Part shown: piece by piece, positions 3,416 to 37,800 of the stretch
Position numbering within the stretch: position 1 is the first letter of the stretch
Layout of the letters: each line of letters begins with the position of its first letter
DNA from: Callorhinchus milii
Lineage: Eukaryota
DNA: 64,000 nucleotides
Direction of reading: 5' to 3'
Assembly (NCBI RefSeq): GCF_018977255.1
Contig: NW_024704742.1
Coordinates: 80,912,001-80,976,000 of the forward strand
Translations under genes and position numbers: made by a program
The notes under the pieces: generated by a model
What the model was told of the DNA's origin: nothing
What the model saw: only the letters and a program-made list of their open reading frames with translations
Databases searched by the model: none

Positions 3416-4796
3416 TATAAAAAATAATTTGGTCACTTAATCCACGACTTTTTGTAGGGCACTGCCGTGCGCAATTGTCTGCCGTGTTTCGCCCACAAAT
3501 TAGTCACTGTATTTTACAGTATATTCTGTGAAACGCTTTCAAACATCTCAACAAAATGATAAGGCTCTATATCAAATACAAGGATTGGCAGTGTTGTTGT
3601 TGTGATACTTGGGAGTTCTGTAAAATCCCAACCCCTTTTATGTGACAAATGGTCACTCTGCATGTTGGCAGCTGGTCAGCTCGCTACCTGCACATGCACA
3701 ATGCACAGAAAGTGACGTCGGCCATAACCCAATGCAGCACCTGAGAGCCAAGTGAGGCAGCTCTAAGCATGCACAGTGAATGGGACCAGACCCCAACTGG
3801 GTTATAACTGAATCAGCGTGATAAAGAAGCACATTACAACAGGCTGCAGTATGCTTTGAGACATTGATATCATAAGCACTATAAAAATACAAGTTATTTT
3901 TTATACTGGCTGCATTGTCGCTGGACAGCCAAAGGTTTGCTAGTCTTAACCAAATTGCCTGTTTAAAGTTCCTCTGGAAAAAAATGTAATTAAAAAGGGC
4001 TTGAAGCCAATTTTTGGTAAATATAGAAACATCAGACACAATGCAGTCAATAATGAATGAGCCTGAAAGAATAATCAATTATTAAAAAAGGCCAAGCTGA
4101 CAATCCCAATCCCGCCTTTTGCTCTTCGTTTACAAATTGGGATTACGGATAAATCCCCAATATCCAGGAGAATGATCAATGCCTCATTCACTGTTGTAGC
4201 AAACTCCAGGAAATAAAATAGCAGTAGGAGCTGCATCAGTTGCTGAAACATGCACTTTCCTGTATAATCAGAAATCAGTACATAGACTCAATGCAACAGA
4301 AGCAGGTTGATAAAAGTTAAGATCTTCAGCTTGGTTGCCTAACAGAGACTATTTTAAATGGCAAGGGGGGGGAGGGGTGAGGGGTGACAATTAAATGGGG
4401 AAAAAGCAGCAGTACTTGTGTATCTGGGTCTGATAACAGAAACACTAAGATTCAAGAATGAGAGCACAATTTCTAAAGTTGCATGATGCCTGATTTGGAT
4501 TTTAATCAACTCTACAGATTAATTCCTGTAGTTTGTATTCCTGAGGATCTTTTAAAAAAGAACTACAGCGAGATTGTGTTCTGAGATACTGAAATCGTTT
4601 TTAGAAGGTAACATTTTTCAAGGGCAGATGGAAGAGAGAGAGGAGAGAGAGAGGGGGAAAGGAAACATGCACAAACCAAAGAAAGCAGATGTCCGAGAAG
4701 GCAGGTCAGTAAATTAACTGTGAGAGACAGTTCGACAGAGGAAAGGCTGAGAAAGAAGGACAGATGCTCACAGAGAGGCAAGCAGTTTTTACTTAC

Positions 4797-4985
4797 AATG
4801 GTCGTGGGGGTTGCTGCCAGCACACAGTACAGTATGAGCGGGGAGATGAAACTGTCCTCCTCTGGTCCTGGGTATGGCTTCATAAGATCACCATCCTGAC
4901 AGAAGAAGCCCTGGATGTGCACTTCAAAAGTGTCGGTGCACTCAAAGTAATAGGCGAGCAGCACAGTCCCAGCCATTATGACGAG
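4797..4985 (-). CDS. PLPPR1: Phospholipid phosphatase-related protein 1, second coding exon (189 nt, phase 0/0)
   Basis: Translates LVIMAGTVLLAYYFECTDTFEVHIQGFFCQDGDLMKPYPGPEEDSFISPLILYCVLAATPTTI, nearly identical to recalled human PLPPR1. Acceptor tttcAG (4987-4986), donor GTaagt (4796-4791). Confidence 0.96.
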
Positions 4986-7900
4986 CTGAAAGTACAGCAT
5001 AGTTAACATAGAGATTAGCTGTCGTCACCACAAAAGCTACTGCAAAACCTCAGATTGTTTTGGTCCCATAGTACATGCTCCCTCCAGCATCCCAACAGTT
5101 ATTCAGCTCCTGAGCTACTGCCTCGTCCCCTTTGATCCACTGTTACATAAATCCTTTGGCAGACGACACTAATGAATGTTTCGGATTGAAGTGGGGCCAG
5201 GCTGTGCTGCTCTGAGGGCTGGTGCTTTCAGCTGCAACTTTATCAAAAGACAACAGAGTGTCACTAATCACCAAGTGATCAATGGCCATTAACAAAAGGA
5301 CCATATCTAAGCGTTAAGACAACCGACACAGTTCAATTTTTGCCAGGCCCTCTGTTTCACAATCATCAGGGCAGAGCAAAATGTCGGCAAGCTTTGGTTG
5401 CCGGCTTTTTGTATTTTTGGACTCGTTCACTCATGCTTTAAATCACAGATCAATTGGAGCAAGACAGACTTCCCATCCTGACATTGAATAAAAGCAACGT
5501 GCCTGACTGAACTGCTGGACAAGGACAGCAACTGCTGAATATGTTCCAAAATCTGGAATTTCCATCCCAGTCATGGAATTATCTGCAGCAGATGACAAAA
5601 GGGATTTCACTGGTCTCATTTGGGTATTTTCTTCCCTGTGCTTCATTTTTTTTTAAGAAACAAACTAATATTATCCAAGTTTGACTGGCTGCTTGTCAAC
5701 TAACAGCAAGAAAATGTCTTGCCCAAAACCATGATAAATATATATCAATCTCATTTAGTACAGCGCCTTTTAAATCGGTAACACGTCTCAAAGCACTTCA
5801 CAGGATTTACTGTAAAGTGCAGTGACTGTATTTTGTAGGAAAACATGGCAGGCTGTTTGTGCACAGCAAACTCCCACAAACAAGCATGAAGTGAGTGACA
5901 AATTTTATTTGGGGGATTGTTGTCCAAGACACTGGGGATAACTCGCTCCTCTTTTCAAACATACTCATTGAATCTTTAATATTGAAGTGTTCAGGGGGTA
6001 GACCAGACCTCGGTTTATTGTTTCATCCAAGGGATGGCACCTCCAACATTGATTGGAATGTCAGCTTAGACTATTGACGTTCCAGTGTCTGAGATGGGAT
6101 GGTTGAAATCACAACCTTCTGACTCGGAGGCGAGAGTCCTACCAACTGAGCCAGGCTGACACACAAAAGGCTTCAGCCCGCACTAAAGAGAAAAATACCA
6201 GAAAATCATTCCAAACAACAATTTCCACTGTTATTGGATTTTATTTTTTGACTTTGGGGCAATATTTTCTATTGCAACCCCAGAGACAAATTAAATCCAC
6301 TCCAGGTGATATTTGTTCGGTTATATATCCTTCAAGAGAGCACATGAATCGAAAAGCTTTTTTTAGAATTAAATTTTAATGTGCTTTCATCTATTTTGGA
6401 AACTTTTATTTGTAAAGTAAATGCATCTGTCTGTGTCACAGTATGTTGGAGTCTCTGTAAAGGATTCGCTGCTCCGCAATACATCATGTACCAAGTTGCT
6501 GTTGAACGTGGAGAGGTCAAGCTGTCTAGTCATCTCTTAGTGGCCAGCTTCAGAGCTTTGCCAGAGGTCCTTTTGACCAAGGAACAGGGCATGGGGAGAA
6601 TTAGGAGAAGGAAAACAATAATAATCCTTGCAATTGATATAGTGCCTTATCACGTCTTCGAGACAATAGTGTGTTTGAAGAACATCCATCATCAGAATAA
6701 TTTTTTTTCTATAATTAATAGATAAGCAATCCTCTAATGCTAGTCCTTCTCCTTCATTAAGTATGCAGATCAGGTAGAGCAACAGATATGATAGTGAGCC
6801 TCTGGGGCCTTTCATTCGAATTAACATTGCATGAAAAATGGTTCTTGCTTCAGTGAGTGGGAATATGTCGTTCACTTAACCTATTCGAATCCGTGATAGG
6901 CATTTTTTTTTGTCGGTCATGGAAGGAGAAGGGTTGATGGGTTGAATGGCCTTAATTTGCTCCTTGTTTTTGGGTTCAAGCACCACTTCATGTTTTGAGT
7001 TTACAATTTAGGCTGACATCAACGTAATACTAGAGTGCTGGAAAATCAGAGATGCCATCCTTCGATCTGCCTGTTCAGGTGGATGTTAAAGACCCCATAA
7101 CACTATTCGAAATGCCAACAATCTCCCAGATAAAATTGGTTGTTCACTTCATGACTATGTGCAAACTAGCTGTTGCATTTACCATAAAATGCAGTCAATC
7201 CACTTTACAGTACAAATACAAAATACAAGATTACATTTATAAAGCACCTTTCACATCGGGAGGACGTCCCAAGACGCTGAACAGTCAGGGATTACGACCC
7301 GAGCGGGGTGGGGGGAGCTATATAATATAACTGTCAATGGATATACTATATACCCAACAATTATTATTATTTAACCTTAAGATAATGCTTTCTAAACAAA
7401 AGACCTTGCAGTTCATGATTCTCCGCCAAATACCGGTCTAAAAAACAACTTCAAAGGTTAAAGCTTGAAGTTAAAAAGTCCCTTTGGAGCCTAAGATTCA
7501 AAAATCAAAATATATCATCTAAATTAAAGTGCAACACCAGAATGTATTTGTGTTCCCAGAGGATAAAGGGTTGCAAATAAACTTGATGTCATGATGGGAG
7601 ACAGTAGGCTGGACACTCTAGAAGGATAACATCAGATGGGCTGCGGGGCCTTTTTCATCAAAATATCTCTTGTAATCTTGTGAAATCATAAAAGTTACAG
7701 CATTCTTGAGACCAGAGCCTTGGGATGCCCTCCCGACGTGAAAAGCGCAATACAAATGTAATTTTGTATTGTATTGTCAGGTCATTGAGACTTAAGAATG
7801 CCATCTCATCCATCAAACCAAACCTCTTATCCCAATTCTCTCTTATATTGTTCCTCCCTTTTGAAATATTTATCCAATTCCATTTTAAATAGTGTTAGCA

Positions 7901-9169
7901 TCAGTAGTCACTTAAGGCAAAGTATCATTTCATGTTCTAATAACTCCCTGATTGAACAGATTTATCCTCAATTCTTCCAGTGAGAATAATGCTCTCTCTT
8001 TGTTACGATCACACTCCTTCAGGCTGGAGAGCAGAATTTGGGGAACACCTCCACCTGGGTTTATATTTATACTATTTTCTTAGCATTTCAAAGTGATTAG
8101 AATTTGGAAAAGTCTACATTCTTAATTTTAAAACCATTTTTCTGTAAACCCCCCCCACACACACTCCATATTCAACATGTCTTAAGGCTGCCTGGCTTAG
8201 TTTATAGTTTTTGCCTCTGAGTGAGACGGTCCAAGCCCCACAACTTTAAGCTCACCTACTCTTGGCTGACACTTCCCTCCGGTGGGGAAGTGCCTCATGT
8301 TAGAGGTACCATCCTTTGGATGAGACATTAAACTGTTTTCATCTACCCGTTCAGGAGGACATTGAAAATCTCATAGCATAATTCGAAGTGTGTCTCTCTC
8401 GCTGTCACTGATAAAATTGATCATTAATTTCATGTCTATTTGTGGGACATTGCAGTGTGCAAATCGGCTCCTGTGTTTGCCACTTTACAGTAAATCCTGT
8501 GAAGCGCTTTCCCGATCAAGAAGGCACTATATCAAATGCAAGGGTTATTATTTTATTGTTATGCTTTCTTCCCGCTTCCCCAGCACACTGCCATGGGAAC
8601 TGTTGCACTTCACCAAGCATTTCAAATTAAGGAATTTAAATGTCAGGCTACGTTGAAATATAAAATGCATTGACCTGATGAGTTCAGCAATTAAGGTTTT
8701 CAAACAGAAAGTAGAAATTGAAGAAAAGTCATACCCATTTGTTCTCCACTGACGCCCCACAGCCCAACCTCAGGTTCAATTACTGTGATGGGGGCATGGA
8801 TTCTAGCTTGACCACCACTGCAATTTTGAGGCGGTCATGATTATTAGCAATAATAATTATCACATCACATCTCACCATTTCCCGTTGTTGCAGAAATAAT
8901 CGCCGTCGGGATATTTAGCTTCAACATCTGTGCCAAAAGTTACTGCCACTGTAAGCATTTAACTCAATTGCTATTTTTAGTATAGCATTCAGAGACCGAC
9001 TGTCATCAGTAAATACAGAGGTCTTGCACACACTATTAATCATTACGTCTTTCCTTTCGTCTGGAATAGAGGTACGTTCCCACTCAGTTATTACTGAACA
9101 CTGAGATAACAACTTCCAGGAATGTCATGCACATTTACAGACAAGCGTGCCGTATCGAACCAGAGAAAT

Positions 9170-9463: not shown

Positions 9464-10930
9464 CATAACATAACATGTAGGAGCAGGAGTAGGCCATTCG
9501 GCCCTTCGAGCCTGCCCCGCCATTCATTCATGGCTGATCTTCTAATCTAACTCCAGCTAATAACCTAACCCTGCCTTACCCCATATCCCTTAATACCTTT
9601 TGCAATAAGAAATCTATCTATCTCAATCTTGAATATGTTCAAGGACTGAGCGTCAACAGCCCTTTAGGGTAGCGAGTCCCATACATTCATCACCCTTTGA
9701 GTGAAGAAGTTCTTACTCAACTCAGGGCTGGCCTCTGATTTTAAGGTTGTGACCCCTGGTTTTAGTTTCTCCAACCAGGGGAAACAATCTCCCACTATCT
9801 ACTCTATCATGCCCTTTGATGATCTTATAGGTTTCTATAAGATCCCCTCTAATTCTTCTATATTCTAGAGAATATAGGCCCAAATTGGTCAGCCTATCCT
9901 CGTAACTCATCCCCTTCATCCCTGGCACTAAACTAGTAAATCTACCCTAAAACCCCTCCAAGGCAAGTACATCCTTCCTTAAATGAGGAGACCCAAACTG
10001 CACACAGTATTCCAGGTGTGGCCTCACCAGGGCCCTATACAGTTGCAGCAAGACTTCCCTACTCTTATACTCTAATCCTTTCATAATGAATGTTAACATA
10101 CCGTTCGCCTTCCTAATCGCTTACTGCACCTACAGACTAACCTTCTGTGATTGGTGTACAAGGACACCCAAGTCCCTCTGGACGCTAACACATTCCAATC
10201 TCTCCCCTTCTAAATAACCAGCTCTACTGATTTGCTGGGTGGAGGACTTCGCACTTCCCTACATTATACTTCATCTGCCACCTATCTATGTCGCGCTGCA
10301 TTTTTTAATGTCGTCCTCTGTGTTGACACTTCCTCCTAGTTTGTGTCATCCGCGAATTTAGATATATTAACTTCGATGTCATCATCTAGATCGTTGATGT
10401 AGATGGTAAATAGCTGAGGCCCAAGGACTGATCCTTGTGGCACTCCACTAGTCACATCCCGCCAATCTGAAAAGGACCCGTTTATCCCTACTCTTTGTTT
10501 CCTACCCGTTAACCATTCCCCAATCCACGTTAATATGCTCCCCCCAATTCCATGGGCCCTTATCTTTTGGACTAACCTTTTATGCGGCATATCATCGAAT
10601 GCCTTCTGGAAGTCCAAATAGACCACATCCACTGATTCACCCTTATCTAGTTTATTCGAAATATCCTCAAAAAACTCTATGAGATTTGTCAAACATGACT
10701 TCCCTTTTGTAAAGCCGTGTTGACTTGGCATAATTATATTGTGCTCTCCTAAGTACAGCACTACCACATCCTTAATCAATGATTCTAAAATTTTTCCTAT
10801 CACTGATGTGAGACTAATTGGCCTATAGTTCCCCATCTTTTCCTTTCCACCTTTTTTAAATAGTGGTGTGACATTTGCGATCTTCCAATCCATGGAGACT
10901 GTTCCAGAATCCAAGGAATTTTGGAAGATC
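9464..10930 (-). mobile_element. 5'-truncated CR1 LINE (RT 3' half and tail)
   Basis: ORF 10336-10914 carries [33 protein letters not shown]. Tail cctactcctgctcctacatgttatgttatg. Small internal deletions near 10230-10290. Confidence 0.93.
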
Positions 10931-13900
10931 AGAACACACTATCTCATTCTCTGAGCAAAATCTCATTAGGTCATCTTCAGCCTAAAAACAAGTGATTCCT
11001 CCATTCACAGCTGCCACCCACACAAGTCTGTGTGATGTGTAGAAGGTAAAAGCAGCAGACAAATGTATTCGCAGTCACGGGAAAAACAATAAACCTAATA
11101 TATAAACCACAGCAGGGTTTCCCATTGGTGTAAGAAAATGAGTTTTTGATAGTTTGGAAATAGGATGTAGCTGGATGTGGAGACAATTTTGCTGTGGAAA
11201 AGTGAGTCTGGGTTGAAAGGCCTCCTGTTGCTCAGATGTTTCAATCCCTAACCAGGTTACAAACAAAGTAATTAGTCTCCCTGGGAGTTTTAAGGAGAAT
11301 AAAATACAGAAATTATCATTTCTCACCTCGTCCCCCCAAAAAGGCATAGCTTCCATTAGGAAATGGTGAAGCACAAAGCTCAGTGTCAGCCTGGTTCATT
11401 TGGGAAGTTTCTCCCAGTGTACCAGCCAACAATCCCCCAAATAAGGTTGTACCTTCACTTTGTGGCTGTTTGTGGGACACTTCTGTGCACAAGTTGGCTG
11501 CTACTGTCACCTACAAATCATACAGTCACTACAGTAATTCCCGTGAAGCACTTTGAGATGTTTCAATGACAGACAACATCTCTATATAACATGAAAAGAT
11601 TATAATTTTGGATACTAGCTATGTCTCTTTCATAATAATACAGTCCTTCTGTTTTGATATGGCACTTATAAAGGCAAAATAGCATAAATGACATCCTTCC
11701 GAGCTTGCGGCAAAATGTAGTGAATGTTTTTATATTGCAACAGCTGCTTTCGCGTACAGCAATGTCCCACAAACAATAGGAAGTGAATGACCAATTTTAT
11801 CCTCACAACACTGAAATAAATTCCCTTCTCTTTTTGAATTGTTCGATGGGATCTTTGAAGTTGATCTAAACAGGCAGATAAGACCCCAATTTAGCATTTT
11901 ATCTAAAGGATGACAAGACAGCACTCCCCATTATACTGGAGTCCTTGCCAAGATGACACAGGTTTCAACCCACAGCCTTCTGACTCTGAAACAAAAAAAA
12001 CTATCACCTGAGCCATGCTGACATCTCTTGCTGACAGAAGTGTATGTGAAGGCAAGATGAAATAAAAAGTAAAGATGGAGAAATAAATGAGGAGGAATAA
12101 CGGATAGCCACAGGCAGTAATCTCAGCAAAGATCCAAGGGTGCTGGAAAACATAGTTCCTTCACATCTTTTCATAAAATGTGAAATAGAGCAATATTTTG
12201 AATTGGAACAATACGAGAAACATTTTCAAAACTGCTTCCAATTAGGTTTAATAACAGAACTAATTTTCTCCTCTGTGGATGTCAATATTACAACCATTAA
12301 CTGCTGAAGATTAATTTAAGTCAAAATTCCCATGCTGTGCTTTTTCAAAACCGGCTCCTCTCATTTATTGATGTCCAACAAGTACAATTACCATTTCACA
12401 TCTTCAAATTAACTGTTCAGAGACGTGAGTCCAACAGTTATTACCAGACGTCACTTAAATACACAGTGATGCTTCCAATTACAAGGAGAAAGCAATTTCA
12501 TTATAATTTGCCGATATACTGCATTGGTACCTGGTAACTAGAACATCAAGCAGTTTTTAGACACAAGTTTTTATTTTGCATGTTTACTCTGAAGTACCCA
12601 AGATTTTAGGTGTGTTTCTGAAATGCTATAATTTCTTATTAACATAGCCAAACCATTGTGCAAATCAATAAATGTATCGGAAGATATAGCTCTGCAATCA
12701 GGAATAGTAGATCTACACTTCTCCAGTTCTATAAATGAAGGTAGACCCACCTCTTCTGGCTTCTGATTCTTATCAAGCCTTACGCTCTCTTTTTTCAGAT
12801 GCAGGGAAATGTTCATGTGTAAGTGGTATGCATATGTAGAAGTCTGTCTGGTTTGGATATTGTTATGCTTGGTGACGAGTTTCTGCATATTTCAGGCTCC
12901 CAGCTGATCAAATAAAACCCAGAGAAAATCTCTCCTGTTGCAACCAGGTAAAGGAACATATTCAGGATTTCAGCCACTCCGGTTTGGGGTTGATATTGTC
13001 CTGTTGGTGGACTCCCTTGGGGGCCTTTTGCTTTACACCTGCCATCTTGAACCCTTGGCCAACCATTGTGGAATCATGGTTCGACATACCTCGAGAGAAG
13101 GTATCGAGAGAATTGATTGGAAGATACAAGGGGCATCAGTCCCAATTGTTGATTCTTATGGATACCTGGGGTTTGTGGTCGACACCATCAACAACAACAA
13201 CTTACATTTATATAGTGCCTTCCATGCCAGGCGGAGTCTCAGAGCGCTTAACAAGGGCGGAGCCCGACATCAGCTTTTGCTTGGACACTGTACCAAGGAT
13301 CACACCGAAAAAGGGCAAAGGACACACTGGTCATGCTAACCTCTCTTCAAGATCCCAATGCTTGTCCAGCTTGTGGCATACAACAACAACAACAAAATTA
13401 CATTTGTATAGCACTTTTCATGTCGGGAGGACATCCCAAGACCTATGTGCATATAGTCCTCCTTTACGATCTGAGCTCCTAGAAATGCACTGAAGAGGCT
13501 TGATCTGCAAAATCCAGGATGGATTTGCAGCAAACACAGGAAGTGGCTGTAGGGAGAGAGGGGATGCTGTCGCCACGCACCCTGTAGACTGAGGCGGCTT
13601 CACAATGGGCACATCTGTTTGCCAAAGCCCCTCACATGAGGACCTAACTTAACCAGTTGGTGCTGTGGAAGCCTGGAATTGGACTTGGACCTTGAGAACA
13701 TCAAGGCGCCTGGCCTGTTACAAGCTGTTCTGTAAAGCTGAGTTGCAAGAAACATTCAGGGTCCTGGGGCATTTCTTCATTACAGGGTTTCTTAAGCAAA
13801 TGTTTAGCCTCCAGATGTTTCAATGCAATTTAAAACCATTCCAATTGTTTCAAATGAGTTTAACTGAAGTGAATGTCTGCTTTGCTGCTTCCCTGCACAA

Positions 13901-17965: not shown

Positions 17966-20870
17966 ATGAAAGTGGGAGAGCAGATTAACCAGGGAGATGA
18001 GCTAAGGGTGTCAAGCGGGGAAAGGAAGCCCAGGGATACGGTACTGGTGAATAGGACTAATAGCCCGAAGTCAGAATTAAAGATGCTATATCTGAATGCG
18101 CGAAGCATTCGAAACAAGATAGATGAGTTAAATGCACAAATAGAAACAAACGGGTATGATCTGGTAACCATCACCGAGACATGGTTACAGGGAGATCAAG
18201 GGTGGGAGCTAAATATTCCAGGGTACGTGGTGTATAGGAAAGATAGGCAATGAGGAGGGGGAGTGGCCCTGCTAATAAAGGATAGGATAAAAACAATAGA
18301 GGAAAGATTTTAAATCAGAAATGCATGAAGTAGAGTCAGTATCAGTAGAGGTACGTAATAACAAGGGGCAGAAAAGTGGGAGTAGTTTATAGACCCCCGA
18401 ACAGCAGTCACAGTATCTCTCAAGGTATAAATCAGGAAATTAGCAGAGCATGTAGTAAAGGAAAAACATTAATTGCGGGTGATTTTAACCTGCACATAGA
18501 TTGGGACAACCAAATTGGGAAAAATATGATAGAGGAAGAGTTCATAGAATGTATTAGGGATAATTATCTAGATCAGTATGCCAAGGAGCCAACCAGGGAA
18601 CAAGCCATATTAGACCTTGTTTTGTGCAATGAAGCAGGGCTGATCAGCAAACTGGAACTTAAGGCTTCTCTAGGGCAAAGTGATCATAATATGATGGAAT
18701 TTAGCATTAAGTTAGAGAGAGAAGTAGTTAAGTCCGATGCAAAGGTTTTAAATTTAAGTAGAGTCAATTTTGCTGGTATGAGAGAGGATTTAGCCAAAAT
18801 AAACTGGGAAATTAGACTTAAGGATTTGACAGTAGACCAGCAATGGCAGACTTTTAAGGAGAATTCCCAGCGAGCACGTATTCCTTTGAGGAATAAGAAT
18901 GCCATGGGAAAGGTGGCCCAACCGTGGCTAACTAGAGCAGTCAGGGAAAGTATAAAGTTAAAGGAAGAAGCCTATAAAACAGCTAAGATGAGTAGTAAAC
19001 CCGAGGATTGGGAGAACTTTAGGGATCAACAAAGGAGAACCAAAAAAGTGATTAAGAGGGAGAAAATGGAATATGAGGGCAAACTAGGGAGGAACATAAA
19101 GACAGACTGCAAGAGTTTTTATAAATATATAAAGAGGAAGAGGCTGTCAAAGGTAAATGTGGGTCCTCTACAGGCAGAGACGGAGGGAATTATAATAGGG
19201 GACAAAGACATGGCAGAGTCATTAAACAAGTACTTTGCTACTGTCTTCACCTTAGAAGACACTGAAAATCTACCAAGAATAGAGGGGAACCAAGAAGACA
19301 ATGTTAGAGAGCAACTTGGGGAAATTAATATTAGTAAAGAAATGGTTTTAGGTAAATTGTCAGGTCTTAAAACTGATAAATCCTCTGGATCTGATGGCCT
19401 ACATCCTAGGGTTTTAAAAGAGGTGGCTACTGAGATAGTGGATGGCTTATCTTTGATCTTCCAAAATCCTCTGGTTTCTGGAACGATTCCCATTGATTGG
19501 AAGATTGCAAACGTAACACCACTATTTAAGAAGGGTGGGAGAGAAAAGATAGGGAACTATAGACCAGTTAGTCTGACATCAGTGGTAGGGAAAATTCTTG
19601 CGTCCTTAATTAAAGATGTCGTTATGGGATTCCTGGAAGACCATAACAAGATTAGGCAGAGTCAACATGGCTTTACAAAAGGGAAGTCATGCTTAACTAA
19701 TCTTTTAGAGTTTTTTGAAGATGTTTCTAGCAGGTTAGATAGGGGGGAACCAGTAGATGTAATATATTTAGATTTTAAAAAGGCATTTGACAAAAGTGCC
19801 ACACAAAAGGCTATTGCACAAGGTTAAGGCCCACGGGATTAATGGGAACATATTAGCATGGATTGAAGAGTGGCTAACGGGTAGAAACAGAGAGTAGGGA
19901 TAAACAGGTCATTCTCGAATTGGCAGGATGTGACTAATGGAGTGCCACAAGGATCAGCGCTTGGGCCTCAGCTATTTACAATTTACATCAATGATCGAGA
20001 TGAGGACATTGAATGTAACGTATCTAAATTTGCGGATGACACTAAACTAGGTGGGGAGAGTAAACTCTGAGGATGATGCAAAAAGATTGCAACGGATATA
20101 GATAGGTTAGGGGAGTGGGCAAGTAGGTGGCAGATGGAATTTAATGTGGGGAAGTGTGAAGTTATTCACCTAGGTAGAAAAAATAGAAAAACAGATTATT
20201 TTCTAGAGGGGGAAAGATTAGATAGTGTTAGTGTTCAGAGGGATTTGGGTGTCCTTGTACATCAGTCTCAAAAAGTTAGTTTGCAGGTGCAGCAAGCAAC
20301 CAAGAAGGCGAACGGCATGTTAGCGTTCATTGCAAAAGGTTTAAAGTACAAGAGTAGGGAAGTCTTGGTGCAACTGCATAGGGCCTTAGTGAGACCGCAC
20401 CTAGAGTACTAGTACTGTGTGCAGTTTTGTTCTCTTTATTTAAAAAAGGACATACTTGCCCTCGAGGGGGTGCAGCGTAGATTCACTAGGTTAGTTCCTG
20501 CGATGAGGGGACTGACCTATGAGGATAGGCTGAATAAACTAGGGCTGTATTCTCTAGAGTACAGAAGAATTAGGGGAGATCTTATTGAAACATATAAGAT
20601 TCTTAAAGGGCTGATAAAGTAGACACTGAGGGTCTGTTTCCCCTGGTAGGAGAATCTATAACCAGGAATCACAGTCTTAAAATTAAGGGTCAGCCTTTTA
20701 GAACAGAGTTGAGGAAACATTTCTTCACTCAGAGGGTAGTGAATTTGTGGAATTGACTACCCCAGAAAGCTGTAGATGCTCAGTCCTTGACCATCTTCAA
20801 GGCTGAGACTGATTGATTTTTTAAAAATAGAGGGATTAGGGAATATGGGGATAGGGCAGGTAATTAGAGT
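17966..20870 (+). pseudogene. CR1 ORF2 (APE endonuclease plus reverse transcriptase), disrupted
   Basis: YLNARSI, ITETWL, GDFN, LDLVL, SDHN (APE); NYRPVSLTS, QHGF, YLDFKKAFD, GVPQGS, KFADD (RT). Several frameshifts and stops. Confidence 0.92.
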
Positions 20871-33985: not shown

Positions 33986-34778
33986 CTATTACTAATAATA
34001 TAATAATAATCCTTACATTTTGATATAGCGCTTTTCACGTCTTCTAGACGTCTCAAAGCGCTTCACAGAATATACTGTAAAGTGAATTGACTGCATATTA
34101 TGCTGGCACTTTGATTGGCACTTTGACCAACCCTAGATAGCTTTTCTTTAAACCATTATCTTTCCTTTGTCAACGTCACATTTAAATGGTATTTTAAGAA
34201 TGGACTTTCTCAGCTGAAAAGATTGACATAGAAAATACACAGCTACTGCAGTTTGCAGTGATACAAGATGCCCTGAGACAAACCTCCCTACACACACACC
34301 AATATGAAAGGTGTCACATCGAACACATGGGTTATTATAAGGTACTAAATGTGGGTAATGCAGCAAAAGTATAGCTGCTACACTCAGTGGATAGGTGACT
34401 TCTGGAAAAAGGCCCAATGCATTGAAAATGAAGAGCAGAAAAGTCAGAAAGAGACTTGTGACTTGCTCCAGGTCACTATTATGTGCTACCAGCTGCCTGA
34501 GGGGAAGCAGCAGGTCATTGGCACATTGACTCAGCTGGGAAGTGACATGTGGTAAAGAACACCTGGGAAGAAAGAGGAAATTAAACACCTAGCAAAATCC
34601 ATGCTTTCAACAGATGTTGGGAGTAAAACTGTGCATTAATTGGTGGCCTAGGGAGTGCATTATGAGCATTATATGCCTCAATTTCCACCCAGTCTTAGCT
34701 TACTGTATGAGCAGAATAAAAACACAAGTACTTTAAATGACTAGAGTACCAATGTTCCATCTGGAGTCACCCACTCAC

Positions 34779-34844
34779 CTCCACGAATATGAAGCATGGG
34801 ATGATGGAGTAACTCCTCTGAATATTGTTCACTTCTGTTGCCAT
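34779..34844 (-). CDS. PLPPR1: PLPPR1 first coding segment, MATEVNNIQRSYSIIPCFIFVE (whole exon 34779-34894, including 50 nt of 5'UTR)
   Basis: Manual translation matches recalled human MAVGNNTQRSYSIIPCFIFVE. Kozak agaATGg, donor GTgagt at 34778, acceptor ttttttgcAG at 34896-34895. Phase 0 joins the 4985 exon in frame. Confidence 0.95.
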
Positions 34845-37800
34845 TCTGATTCATCAGATCACTCTTCCAAGAAAGGTTTAAACGTCTTACAGACCTGCAA
34901 AAAAGAACGTCTATTACTAAATACATTATTTTAGTTCCTTTATACGGATCCAAACTAATTCTAAGTATGATAACCCAAGGGAGAAAAAAAACAATTGTCC
35001 TTGGTACTTTTACAACAAGTATGCCTCCATATCCCACTACTTAATTTGTTATACAACCTTTAGGATAGAGAGGCCTAAGTGGAAATGTAAAGTTTAATTG
35101 TTCAGTCTACAGTGCTTGCATTTTTTTAAGGCACTGAAGATGCAAATTCCAGAAAGCAGGCACCAACAAGGCTGAAAAGAACAAGAGAGTGGATAGGATG
35201 AATCAAATGATGATTAGATGAAGCCAGGTTTGGGTTGTAAAAACTATGGATTACGTGATGCAGAGAAAGCAGAAAAAGTAAGGAATTTGACAATTTGTCA
35301 ACCCTAGTGAGGATCACTTTATATCATTAATCCAGAGACTCAAAATGCAGCAACAAACTGGAACAAAGTGCTACATTTAATGTCTCTTCTGTTCTGAAAT
35401 GTGTCTCCCAATTTCTGGAGGGCTCTTGTGACAACTGATGTTTGATGCACAAATATCTTTATGCCACTACGAGGTTCCAAGCAGACTGTCACATGTGTGC
35501 AATCGGCCATTCAAAATTTATATTTGTAACTTCCACTGACCAAATCATGGCAGTGGAGATCGGGAGATGTGTCTGAATACTGGATAACTTTACTCTTGGT
35601 CCTATTCACAATTTCTGCTGCTGTTATAAGGGTGATAATAATACGTACAATTGCTATAGTGCATTATCAAGTCATTGAGATGTCTCAAAGAGCTTCACAA
35701 GGTTTGTAAGTATGAAAGTCTGAGAGCATTGCAATACTGACACAATGATGTCGAGACAACTATTCATGCCTAGTATATCAATGGATTCAGTGTTCCAGTG
35801 AGTTTTTCATTGTGGAACTGGAACTTGTATGTGAAGAGGCAACGGGTGTTTTGACTCCAATCGGGGTTAGGGGAAAGATTGGCACCGGGACAACCAGCCA
35901 TTTATATTGGGCTTTTCCTTCAGAAGAGAGTTCATCCCCAAAGAAGAATGTAAAATCACCACTGAAATGGAGACAGTGTGATGGTTTTCATTTCAACAAC
36001 AATTTGTTTTGAGGGGGGGTTATTTTGGTCAGCCAGGTGGGTGTCTGACACAAGAGGAAACCCATCACCATGCTTAAGAGCATCCAAACCATCTGAGATT
36101 TCCATGCATTTCACCTACACATGGAAATCACAGAGATAGATTGTTGGAAAGGAATGTGCACTCTCTCCCTGGAGGAATGCATCCTGCTTACCTAATTTTG
36201 GAAATTATTAGGCGCAGGTTGACAAGGGTCAAGGCTTGGGGAGTCCAGAGTGGGCATTGGAGTCTAACCAGCTGAAACCGCATGGCTTGTTATTGATATT
36301 GCTGTTTGGTAAGCTTTCCATCTGCTTGTCCAGCTCGGACCACCCCACCCGTTAGTGCTTTGGCTTGCAGAGTTAACAGTAGCTGAGTGGTTTGACGCCC
36401 TGACCCAAGTGATTGGTCTGCCCTCCCAGGTCCTGTCAATGAGCCAGGCCGGCTGTGCTGTCATCAGCAGTGCCCTGGAATACTGAGGATCCGCCTGGTT
36501 CAGGAACCGGCTTACCGAGACCGCCACAGAGGGTTGACTCCATTCCGTTGCCAAGCATGTCACCTTGGAGCCAGTTCAGCTCCTAGGAGACCCCAGGGCT
36601 CTGCTGATGACAGCGCAGCCAACCTGGCTCATCAGCAGGACGTGGAAGGGCAGACCAGTCACTGTTAATCCCGCAACATTTATGATGCATCCTACACGTC
36701 CAATAATGTCTTGGGACACTTTATTACGGTAAAGGAAATAGAATGAGTGTCCGGGATGATGTGTTTGCCACTTACGATCAGAAAGGGACACAATAAATCA
36801 TGTTTCATCCAAAATTCATTTATCAGTGCTCATTTGTTTTGCTGGTGCTCAAGACCAGTTATCTCTTGTAAATTGAAATTCTGTGGACTATTGCACGCAC
36901 TGCCCAGTAACAGAGTTAAAAGAGTTAAAATGAAGTCTCCACTACCCTCTAAATAAATTGAAAGTGTTCCATATCTATTCCCATCCATTACATACACTCA
37001 AGGTACATGAACTAAATTATTCAAATCCGTGCCTCAGCAAACCGTGGGTATTGTACAAGTCGTAGTAAGAGGTGTGTCTAAGAAAATTCTTTGAGCTCAC
37101 AGCATCCGCTACAGCTTTCCATACCCAAACACATTTGTTATTCTACAAAAAAAAATCAGAAGAAGTGATTTACTGAATGTGAAAACAAAAAAACCTGGAA
37201 GTGTGGAAGCAGGCATTTGTGAATAATTAATCATAGAATCAAGTTAAACTGACTGGGATCCTGAAAGCTAAACACACTTTTTTTNGTCTGCTGAACCTGA
37301 ATTCAAACCCATGTGATACCTTCTTTTATTTTAGGAGCCTGTCTTTGAATCAGAATTTTTTTTTGGTAATTAAATCAGTTAATTGTTTAAATGAGAATCA
37401 CACCCTCCTCCCCTCCTTTATCTATAGACTTAGCAGATATGAGCCAGTCAAATACACCAACAACTAAACGTTCACATGTATAACTCAATAATGTGACTGA
37501 TTAAGCGATTGCTTAATTTAATAACTGCTCTCAACATCAACATTCCCACTGAGCTGGTACCCAGTCACTCACCCTACCTACAGTACAAAACAACAAAATT
37601 ACATTTGAGGAAGAAAATAATTTGTTTAAAAACAATGTTTTCAATAAATAGGATTTGTGTTTCATTGTTCTAAAATCTAGTATTGTTTTCAAAACGGCAG
37701 ATCTTCTGTTAGAAGAGAAGATCTGATACACATGTATTGAGAAAACATGATTTGAATTCATCTTTTAAATCCACGGAGTAACAAAATGCAGGATTGCAGA

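Follow-up and report, generated by a model that had tools for sequence, protein, structure and literature searches.

An intron end of PLPPR1 in Callorhinchus milii that probably serves both as splice acceptor and as a second, shorter protein start

The window, that is, the whole stretch of 64,000 nucleotides of Callorhinchus milii DNA that was analysed, carries on its minus strand the beginning of PLPPR1, whose product is a nerve-cell membrane protein. In the portions of the literature available, PLPPR1 (PRG3) and its paralogue PLPPR5 (PRG5) are described as driving neurite, filopodium and spine formation. The features considered here are as follows.

34779–34894, minus strand: canonical upstream exon with the long N-terminus (ATG at 34844, 22 codons ending IIPCFIFVE, GT donor at 34778)
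5111–5284, minus strand: conserved non-coding element of 174 bp, 126–299 bases before the acceptor, a candidate internal promoter
5040–5090, minus strand: three short upstream ORFs (ATGs at 5090, 5076 and 5069; 17, 8 and 10 codons)
5014–5018, minus strand: branch-point-like CTAAT at -33, which we take to be a candidate branch point from the motif consensus; its counterpart in the bird-like locus L001 is CTAAC at -32
5001–5009, minus strand: ATG TTA ACT, with the first in-frame ATG, non-conserved and in weak context (T at -3)
4986–5000, minus strand: intron end and short N-terminus, ATG CTG TAC TTT CAG (MLYFQ), its CAG being the splice acceptor of the long isoform
4797–4985, minus strand: PLPPR1 coding exon of 63 codons (LVIMAG...PTTI), GT donor at 4796 (GTAAGT)

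The donor at 34778 and the acceptor at 4986 delimit an intron of 29,793 bases (29.8 kb) and join the two exons in frame to give the RefSeq protein, so that at the level of sequence and gene model the exon at 4985–4797 is used as an internal exon. The two exon peptides are identical at 85/85 residues to the start of Callorhinchus milii PLPPR1 (XP_007890216.1), the only exact match to the two-exon peptide among the proteins compared, and in the tree described below this protein falls within the PLPPR1 clade (100/100) and not with PLPPR2 or PLPPR5.

A first-pass annotation had read the 24 nucleotides before the acceptor as ATG TTA ACT ATG CTG TAC TTT CAG in frame with LVIMAG, and this reading is correct on the minus strand, where bases 5009–4986 carry these codons and the frame continues as CTC GTC ATA ATG GCT GGG. 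MLYFQ corresponds to bases 5000–4986, the terminal 15 bases of the intron, and its frame continues into the following exon. The A at -3 that had been noted for the second ATG lies at 5003, as the Kozak -3 base of the ATG at 5000, and the same A fits a branch-point motif, TTAAC, at 5006–5002. The pyrimidine tract is weak, as had been described (9/14 pyrimidines at -18 to -5, compared with ttcttttttgcag at the acceptor of the upstream exon), and the roughly 700 bp upstream contain, in line with the earlier reading, no copy of the 20 largest of 34 dispersed repeat families, the first such copy beginning at 5754. Of the window's acceptor-like sites, 631 have at least 9/14 pyrimidines; in 8 of these an ATG occurs at -15, and in 2 of the 631 there is also a purine at -3 of that ATG. 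Roughly one such site in eighty thus has an ATG at -15, so that a single case is only mildly unusual and the argument has to come from conservation.

A scan of metagenome contigs returned 63 pattern matches, five of which were true relatives, with taxa and paralogue labels assigned by protein likeness. Their last 15 intron bases read:

L001, bird-like PLPPR1: ATG CTG TAT TTT CAG
L002 and L003, near-identical teleost-like PLPPR1: ATG TTT TTC TTC CAG
L004, teleost-like PLPPR2: ATG TTT TAT TTC CAG
L005, teleost-like PLPPR2: ATG TTC TAT TTC CAG

All five of these vertebrate loci carry an in-frame ATG at exactly -15 (background 8/631), and with the window included a purine stands at -3 of the ATG in 6/6, the fixed ATG and -3 purine being the pattern of a conserved alternative start. 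The residue preceding the Met is N, I, T or A, all with purine-initial codons, in 38/42 extended ORFs. Synonymous changes, a check proposed in the first-pass annotation, do occur (TAC/TAT and TTT/TTC) but do not discriminate, for among the six DNA sequences all of them are C/T exchanges that a pyrimidine tract would tolerate as well, and they are not proof of coding selection. A coding role is favoured by the purines that are retained inside the tract, those of the ATG and, in 4/6 sequences, the A of the Tyr codon, and by the unchanged spacing. Similarity between the window and L001 reaches to about -40, past the codons, and includes branch-like motifs at -33 and -21.

At the protein level, only the residues of the exon (9–71) were scored, because the motif itself should not be rewarded, against proteins of 39–125 residues that were mostly ORFs from raw contigs. 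An M-x-x-F-Q start precedes the exon in 62/85 short ORFs (PLPPR1-type 18/26, PLPPR2-type 38/53, PLPPR5-type 6/6) and a Met stands at -5 in 2 more; the rest comprise 14 that start at the next Met, which are uninformative, 3 with the long exon and 4 others. These ORFs are cluster representatives from callers that require a Met start, so the figures are neither independent observations nor counts of events. MLYFQ is unchanged in 17/18 of the PLPPR1-type M-x-x-F-Q ORFs, and the motif is lost or changed in the teleost-like PLPPR1 ORFs P0183, P0187, P0059 and P0189. Among 169 redundant M...Q forms, residue -4 is L (88) or F (81), residue -3 is Y in 166 and residue -2 is F in 163. At a control acceptor of the same genes, that of the G|VFAFG exon, the intron-end translations vary freely and have no fixed Met, in a set that is biased towards diversity, being drawn largely from a 50% clustered library. 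Loss of the ATG in other vertebrates had been named beforehand as a possible refutation; the ATG is conserved. The start MLTMLYFQ first proposed is kept in part, since MLYFQ from the ATG at 5000 is conserved and the ATG at 5009 is not. As a conserved start the latter is ruled out: a Met is found there in one other chondrichthyan-like ORF (P0002) and a Leu in Chiloscyllium, and the surrounding region differs in coelacanth and birds.

The short start resembles the end of the long exon residue for residue, with M-L/F-Y-F-Q (169 forms) in the place of F-I/L-F-V-E (172 forms). In the long form the most hydrophobic 19-residue window starts at residue 14, within the upstream exon. In the short form, by computation, the first Glu of the outer loop follows after 19 residues, compared with 11 from the next Met. 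A short bird form (P0305), modelled with AlphaFold2 from a 38-row alignment, has a helix at residues 2–21 with low-to-moderate confidence (pLDDT 60–67, mean 63.5). On these computed grounds MLYFQ is predicted to restore the first membrane helix at a length of 19 residues. The short protein would lack both the cytosolic head of 13 residues and the IIPC motif, which includes the conserved Cys, and should accordingly differ in targeting or regulation and resemble PLPPR5. The N-terminus of mouse PRG5 is described as extremely short, and GFP fused directly to it is reported to block membrane delivery (PMC11471602, available part), which indicates that the N-terminal end matters; the 'five amino acids' of that paper, as far as its available text goes, are a topology count and not the MLYFQ peptide.

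Annotated gene models of both types have been deposited. In Chiloscyllium plagiosum, PLPPR1 models X3 and X5 are short (XP_043571559.1 and XP_043571577.1) and X2 is long, and the short models share with the translation of the window's intron not only LTMLYFQ but also QSE (about 5057–5065), which fits an unspliced extension of the exon. In Rhinolophus ferrumequinum a short model (KAF6327889.1) stands beside a long one (KAF6327892.1), and further short PLPPR1 models are found in Molossus, Marmota/Ictidomys (X2), Apodemus sylvaticus, many birds, coelacanth, Albula, Acipenser and Polyodon; bats with short models number two. Such models are rare, amounting among the members listed to 2/38 chondrichthyan models (both from one species), 4/35 mammalian and 0/28 amphibian, and of the listed chondrichthyan models 31/38 are long and 3/38 start at the next Met. 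RefSeq 'X' isoforms are usually based on RNA-seq, and partial models of the bird or Ensembl type may be homology-driven; the bird, Ensembl-type and single-model records may be predictions that reflect DNA only. The automated models XP_043571559.1, XP_043571577.1, XP_048639255.1, XP_052031744.1, KAF6434175.1 and KAF6327889.1 are alike in that PLPPR1 begins with or runs through MLYFQ into the shared exon and is then spliced to the next exon; they differ from a described system in being scattered predictions, for which no describing paper was found. The annotated 5′ end of these genes is variable in other ways as well, with next-Met starts (11 residues before the outer loop) or exon skipping in P0136, P0141, P0144, P0158, P0160, P0292, P0295, P0339, P0342 and P0148.

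The same start is encountered in the paralogues. PLPPR5 has M-L-Y-F-Q straight before the same exon peptide (P0382, P0080, P0077, P0090), and the start given for it in the first-pass annotation, ...SSMLYFQMVIMAG, was found in proteins P0382, P0383 and P0385. Mammalian-type PLPPR5 differs from the short PLPPR1 in starting 11 residues further up and in having this as its standard form, whereas the standard form of PLPPR1 uses the long exon; from the sequences compared, the mammalian-type PLPPR5 start appears to be the intron-end form extended upstream. A primer given in the available text of PMC11471602 begins with the MPLL codons, matching the further-up PLPPR5 start. Lungfish PLPPR5 has both a long X1 (...PCFIFVE, XP_043941646.1) and a short X2 (...TIMLYFQ, XP_043941647.1), a turtle PLPPR5 record carries the long exon, and teleost PLPPR2 has both types. 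In three PLPPR5-type records (P0391, P0392, P0393) a diverged long upstream exon (…LPCFVLAE, …LPCSILVE, …LLCFILVE) is spliced past the shared exon, and the long PLPPR5 exon may accordingly be in decay in amniotes. One lamprey gene begins with MLYVQ in RefSeq models from Petromyzon, Lethenteron and Lampetra (4/6 cluster members, the exon being skipped in 2), and a second lamprey gene has the long start only (6/6 records). Protein records of PLPPR3/4, amphioxus and hemichordates, which do not extend to intron ends, show long-type starts only.

For the tree, 39 selected proteins were trimmed at the residue immediately preceding the shared exon, which leaves the N-termini almost without weight. 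It recovers a short-tail clade of 30 rows (100/100) that includes both lamprey genes, with PLPPR1 at 100/100, PLPPR2 at 99/97 and PLPPR5 at 93/87; the branching order among these three is not settled by the tree, and the placement of the MLYVQ lamprey gene with PLPPR2 is weak (87/87, on a long branch). By parsimony the dual start would date back to the ancestor from which the short-tail paralogues PLPPR1, 2 and 5 descend. The earlier suggestion that the dual acceptor and coding use predates the PLPPR1/PLPPR5 duplication is in this way upheld, the start being common to PLPPR2 and the lamprey gene as well. The teleost records P0252, P0259 and P0265 bear the name 'type 5' or 'type 5-like' but group within PLPPR2, and many fish 'PLPPR5' names are probably wrong.

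Upstream of the acceptor, the element at 5111–5284 is the only strong non-exonic match between the window and the 3 kb upstream in L001, the one other PLPPR1 locus with which it was compared, with 122/176 columns identical and a score of 118, where 30 shuffles reached 41 at most; its core at 5124–5195 is 81% identical over 73 bp (E 4e-12). The core contains TTCATTAG (5176–5169), TGCCAA (5161–5156) and TTATGTAA (5150–5143) at the same spacing in L001; these resemble homeodomain, NFI half-site and PAR-bZIP sites, respectively. Alignment upstream of L003, L004 and L005 (the last two being two PLPPR2 loci) gave no match, with scores within those of shuffles; the upstream DNA comprises 111 bases in L002 and 172 in L003. 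The element may be the promoter of the short form and could equally be an enhancer. The internal promoter proposed in the first-pass annotation is thus backed indirectly, by this element and by RefSeq models in another shark, and the role of the element as a promoter stays conjectural. The distance of the element from the acceptor lies within the range reported for hybrid-exon starts in the available part of PMC11797052. There is no CpG island (observed/expected 0.30–0.41 over 4750–5750). Three upstream ORFs lie between the element and the ATG, that at 5069 in good context, and L001 likewise has three upstream ATGs, with ORFs of 15–32 codons; transcription starting above 5090 would hinder translation on this account, and a start near the acceptor suits better. 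The element also contains TGACACT and, some 85 bases away, its inverted counterpart AGTGTC; the pair is kept in L001 and may represent two binding sites or a stem. An RNA structure is not claimed, the two-sequence consensus fold being weak (-10.5 kcal/mol over 174 columns); a single Rfam match in 3500–8000 fell far below the gathering score and was rejected, and a sigma-70 promoter scan was disregarded as inapplicable to vertebrate DNA.

Contigs from four runs, taken by guess to be RNA, were compared with 4300–5740. Run X1 gave a 232-base contig at 5446–5677 and run X5 a contig at 4736–4964, and X2 and X4 gave none; none spans 4986 or contains a joint, and the result is neutral for the short form. 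The X1 contig, of low depth, consists of unique intron sequence above the conserved element and could represent DNA, pre-mRNA or a longer leader.

Exons of this general kind are known as hybrid first-internal exons, of which tens of thousands are reported in human; their transcription starts are reported to lie at the 3′ splice site or no more than a few hundred bases from it, and they are more numerous in brain; most alternative terminal exons change UTRs, and gains between human and mouse have been traced (Fiszbein et al. 2022, PMC8769537; PMC11797052, both in the parts available). The PLPPR1 exon resembles them in being a single exon that would be internal or first, in a long gene with a long upstream intron. 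It differs in that its pyrimidine tract doubles as a conserved coding start, which takes over half of a membrane helix, in that this start is common to three paralogues and a lamprey gene, and in its weak tract and lack of a CpG island; a strong splice site and an upstream CpG island are typical of the class, as tendencies in human data and not as strict criteria. The name PLPPR does not occur in the main text of PMC11797052 or in one supplement of PMC8769537, as distinct from the exon tables. The available text of the family review PMC9520309 contains no mention of isoform, splice, exon or promoter, and that of PMC9657456 none of isoform, splice or variant. MLYFQ as a string was found in no paper, and an N-terminal isoform of PLPPR1 in none of the titles and abstracts, of the literature searched, to which most subscription papers do not belong. 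The hybrid-exon class and the automated short models are known; what would be new is an unusually old and protein-coding member of the class.

Both the sequence feature and its conservation over great evolutionary depth are firmly established, PLPPR1 probably has a second, shorter form, and translation from the ATG at -15 is held with good confidence. The explanation favoured here, which is considered likely, is that the exon at 4985–4797 is an ancient hybrid first/internal exon whose short start is served by a local promoter. In the long form the upstream exon contributes 22 residues ending FIFVE and is spliced to the CAG at 4986. In the proposed short form, of which the exon would be the 3′ part of the first exon, transcription would begin inside the intron, probably just below the element at 5111–5284, the predicted start lying between 5140 and 5001; the RNA would run unspliced through the acceptor, translation would begin at the ATG at 5000, as its conservation suggests, and MLYFQ would take the place of FIFVE and complete the first membrane helix.

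The short start might also be translated by way of splicing or retention instead of a local promoter, either from a non-coding upstream exon joined to an acceptor above the ATG or as five residues inserted into the long protein, in which case the conserved element would be an enhancer or a splicing element. Channa argus plppr2a X1–X3 read PCFLFVE-GRI-MFYFQ-LVIMAG and so use an upstream acceptor, an AG at -35 in the window would add 11 in-frame codons if used, and the next-Met models (the 3/38 listed chondrichthyan ones) imply non-coding upstream exons. L001, however, lacks the AG at -35, the Chiloscyllium short models match the intron translation further up, at QSE, as an unspliced extension would, and an inserted peptide would need neither a Met nor a -3 purine; this route is accordingly thought unlikely.

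Two further readings deny PLPPR1 a working short start. The 15 bases could be a splicing signal only, whether branch point, weak tract or the protein-binding site of a regulated exon, with the frame a by-product that PLPPR5 later recruited and the short PLPPR1 models annotation artefacts. The exclusively C/T synonymous changes are compatible with this, as are an F and a Q that follow from TTYCAG, the branch-like motifs at -33 and -21 common with L001, a -3 A that fits a branch point in both, the rarity of short models, and the exon-skipping models P0339, P0342 and P0148, by which the exon may be regulated. Several observations weigh against a splicing signal only: the ATG stands precisely at -15 in three paralogues and in a lamprey gene, with residue exchanges that are conservative (L/F and F/V); the teleost loci keep the ATG and the -3 purine, and in 3/4 of them the last 60 bases are free of branch-like motifs; the control acceptor is not conserved; and the length of the peptide restores a membrane helix. 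This reading is regarded as very unlikely. Alternatively, the dual start may be ancestral and still in use in PLPPR5 and fish PLPPR2 but a silent relic in PLPPR1, held in place by its overlap with the splice site. The listed short models (0/28 amphibian, 2/38 chondrichthyan) and the loss or change of the motif in some teleost-like PLPPR1 would agree with a relic; yet the window and L001 agree fully in the first eight bases (ATG CTG TA) and in the -3 context, with no alignment over the rest of the 3 kb of intron save at the conserved element, and the near-invariance of MLYFQ (17/18) among the PLPPR1-type M-x-x-F-Q ORFs argues the same way, leaving the relic highly improbable.

On a wider view, it is somewhat more plausible than its contrary that since the first vertebrates a short-tail PLPPR has had two swappable N-termini, one of them in an acceptor, that these were divided after duplication, with PLPPR5 taking the intron-end start and PLPPR1 both, and that mammalian neurons produce a PLPPR5-like PLPPR1 which has its own promoter and has been overlooked. 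Mammalian PLPPR5 would have kept the intron-end start while its long exon decays, a decay that may be under way in amniotes, and PLPPR1 would have kept both. If so, the short PLPPR1 of mammalian neurons would be without the cytosolic head and without the cysteine of the first transmembrane segment, and the intron-end start would explain the origin of the different N-terminus of PLPPR5. If the second PLPPR1 start is real, N-terminal reagents and knockouts of the first coding exon would miss one product. The locus offers a clear, testable case of 15 bases that would act as splice acceptor and protein start across vertebrates.

Other elements are encountered within the window. Inside the intron, 9574–10931 and 19454–20855 are 75–86% complementary and probably represent an old repeat that is present twice, once in each orientation. 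Dispersed short repeat families, SINE-like by appearance, have many copies on both strands between 3414 and 39897, one of them at 5754–5943. On the plus strand, a frame at 18002–18118 ends in ...LYLNARSIRNK, which we take to resemble the start of a LINE endonuclease.
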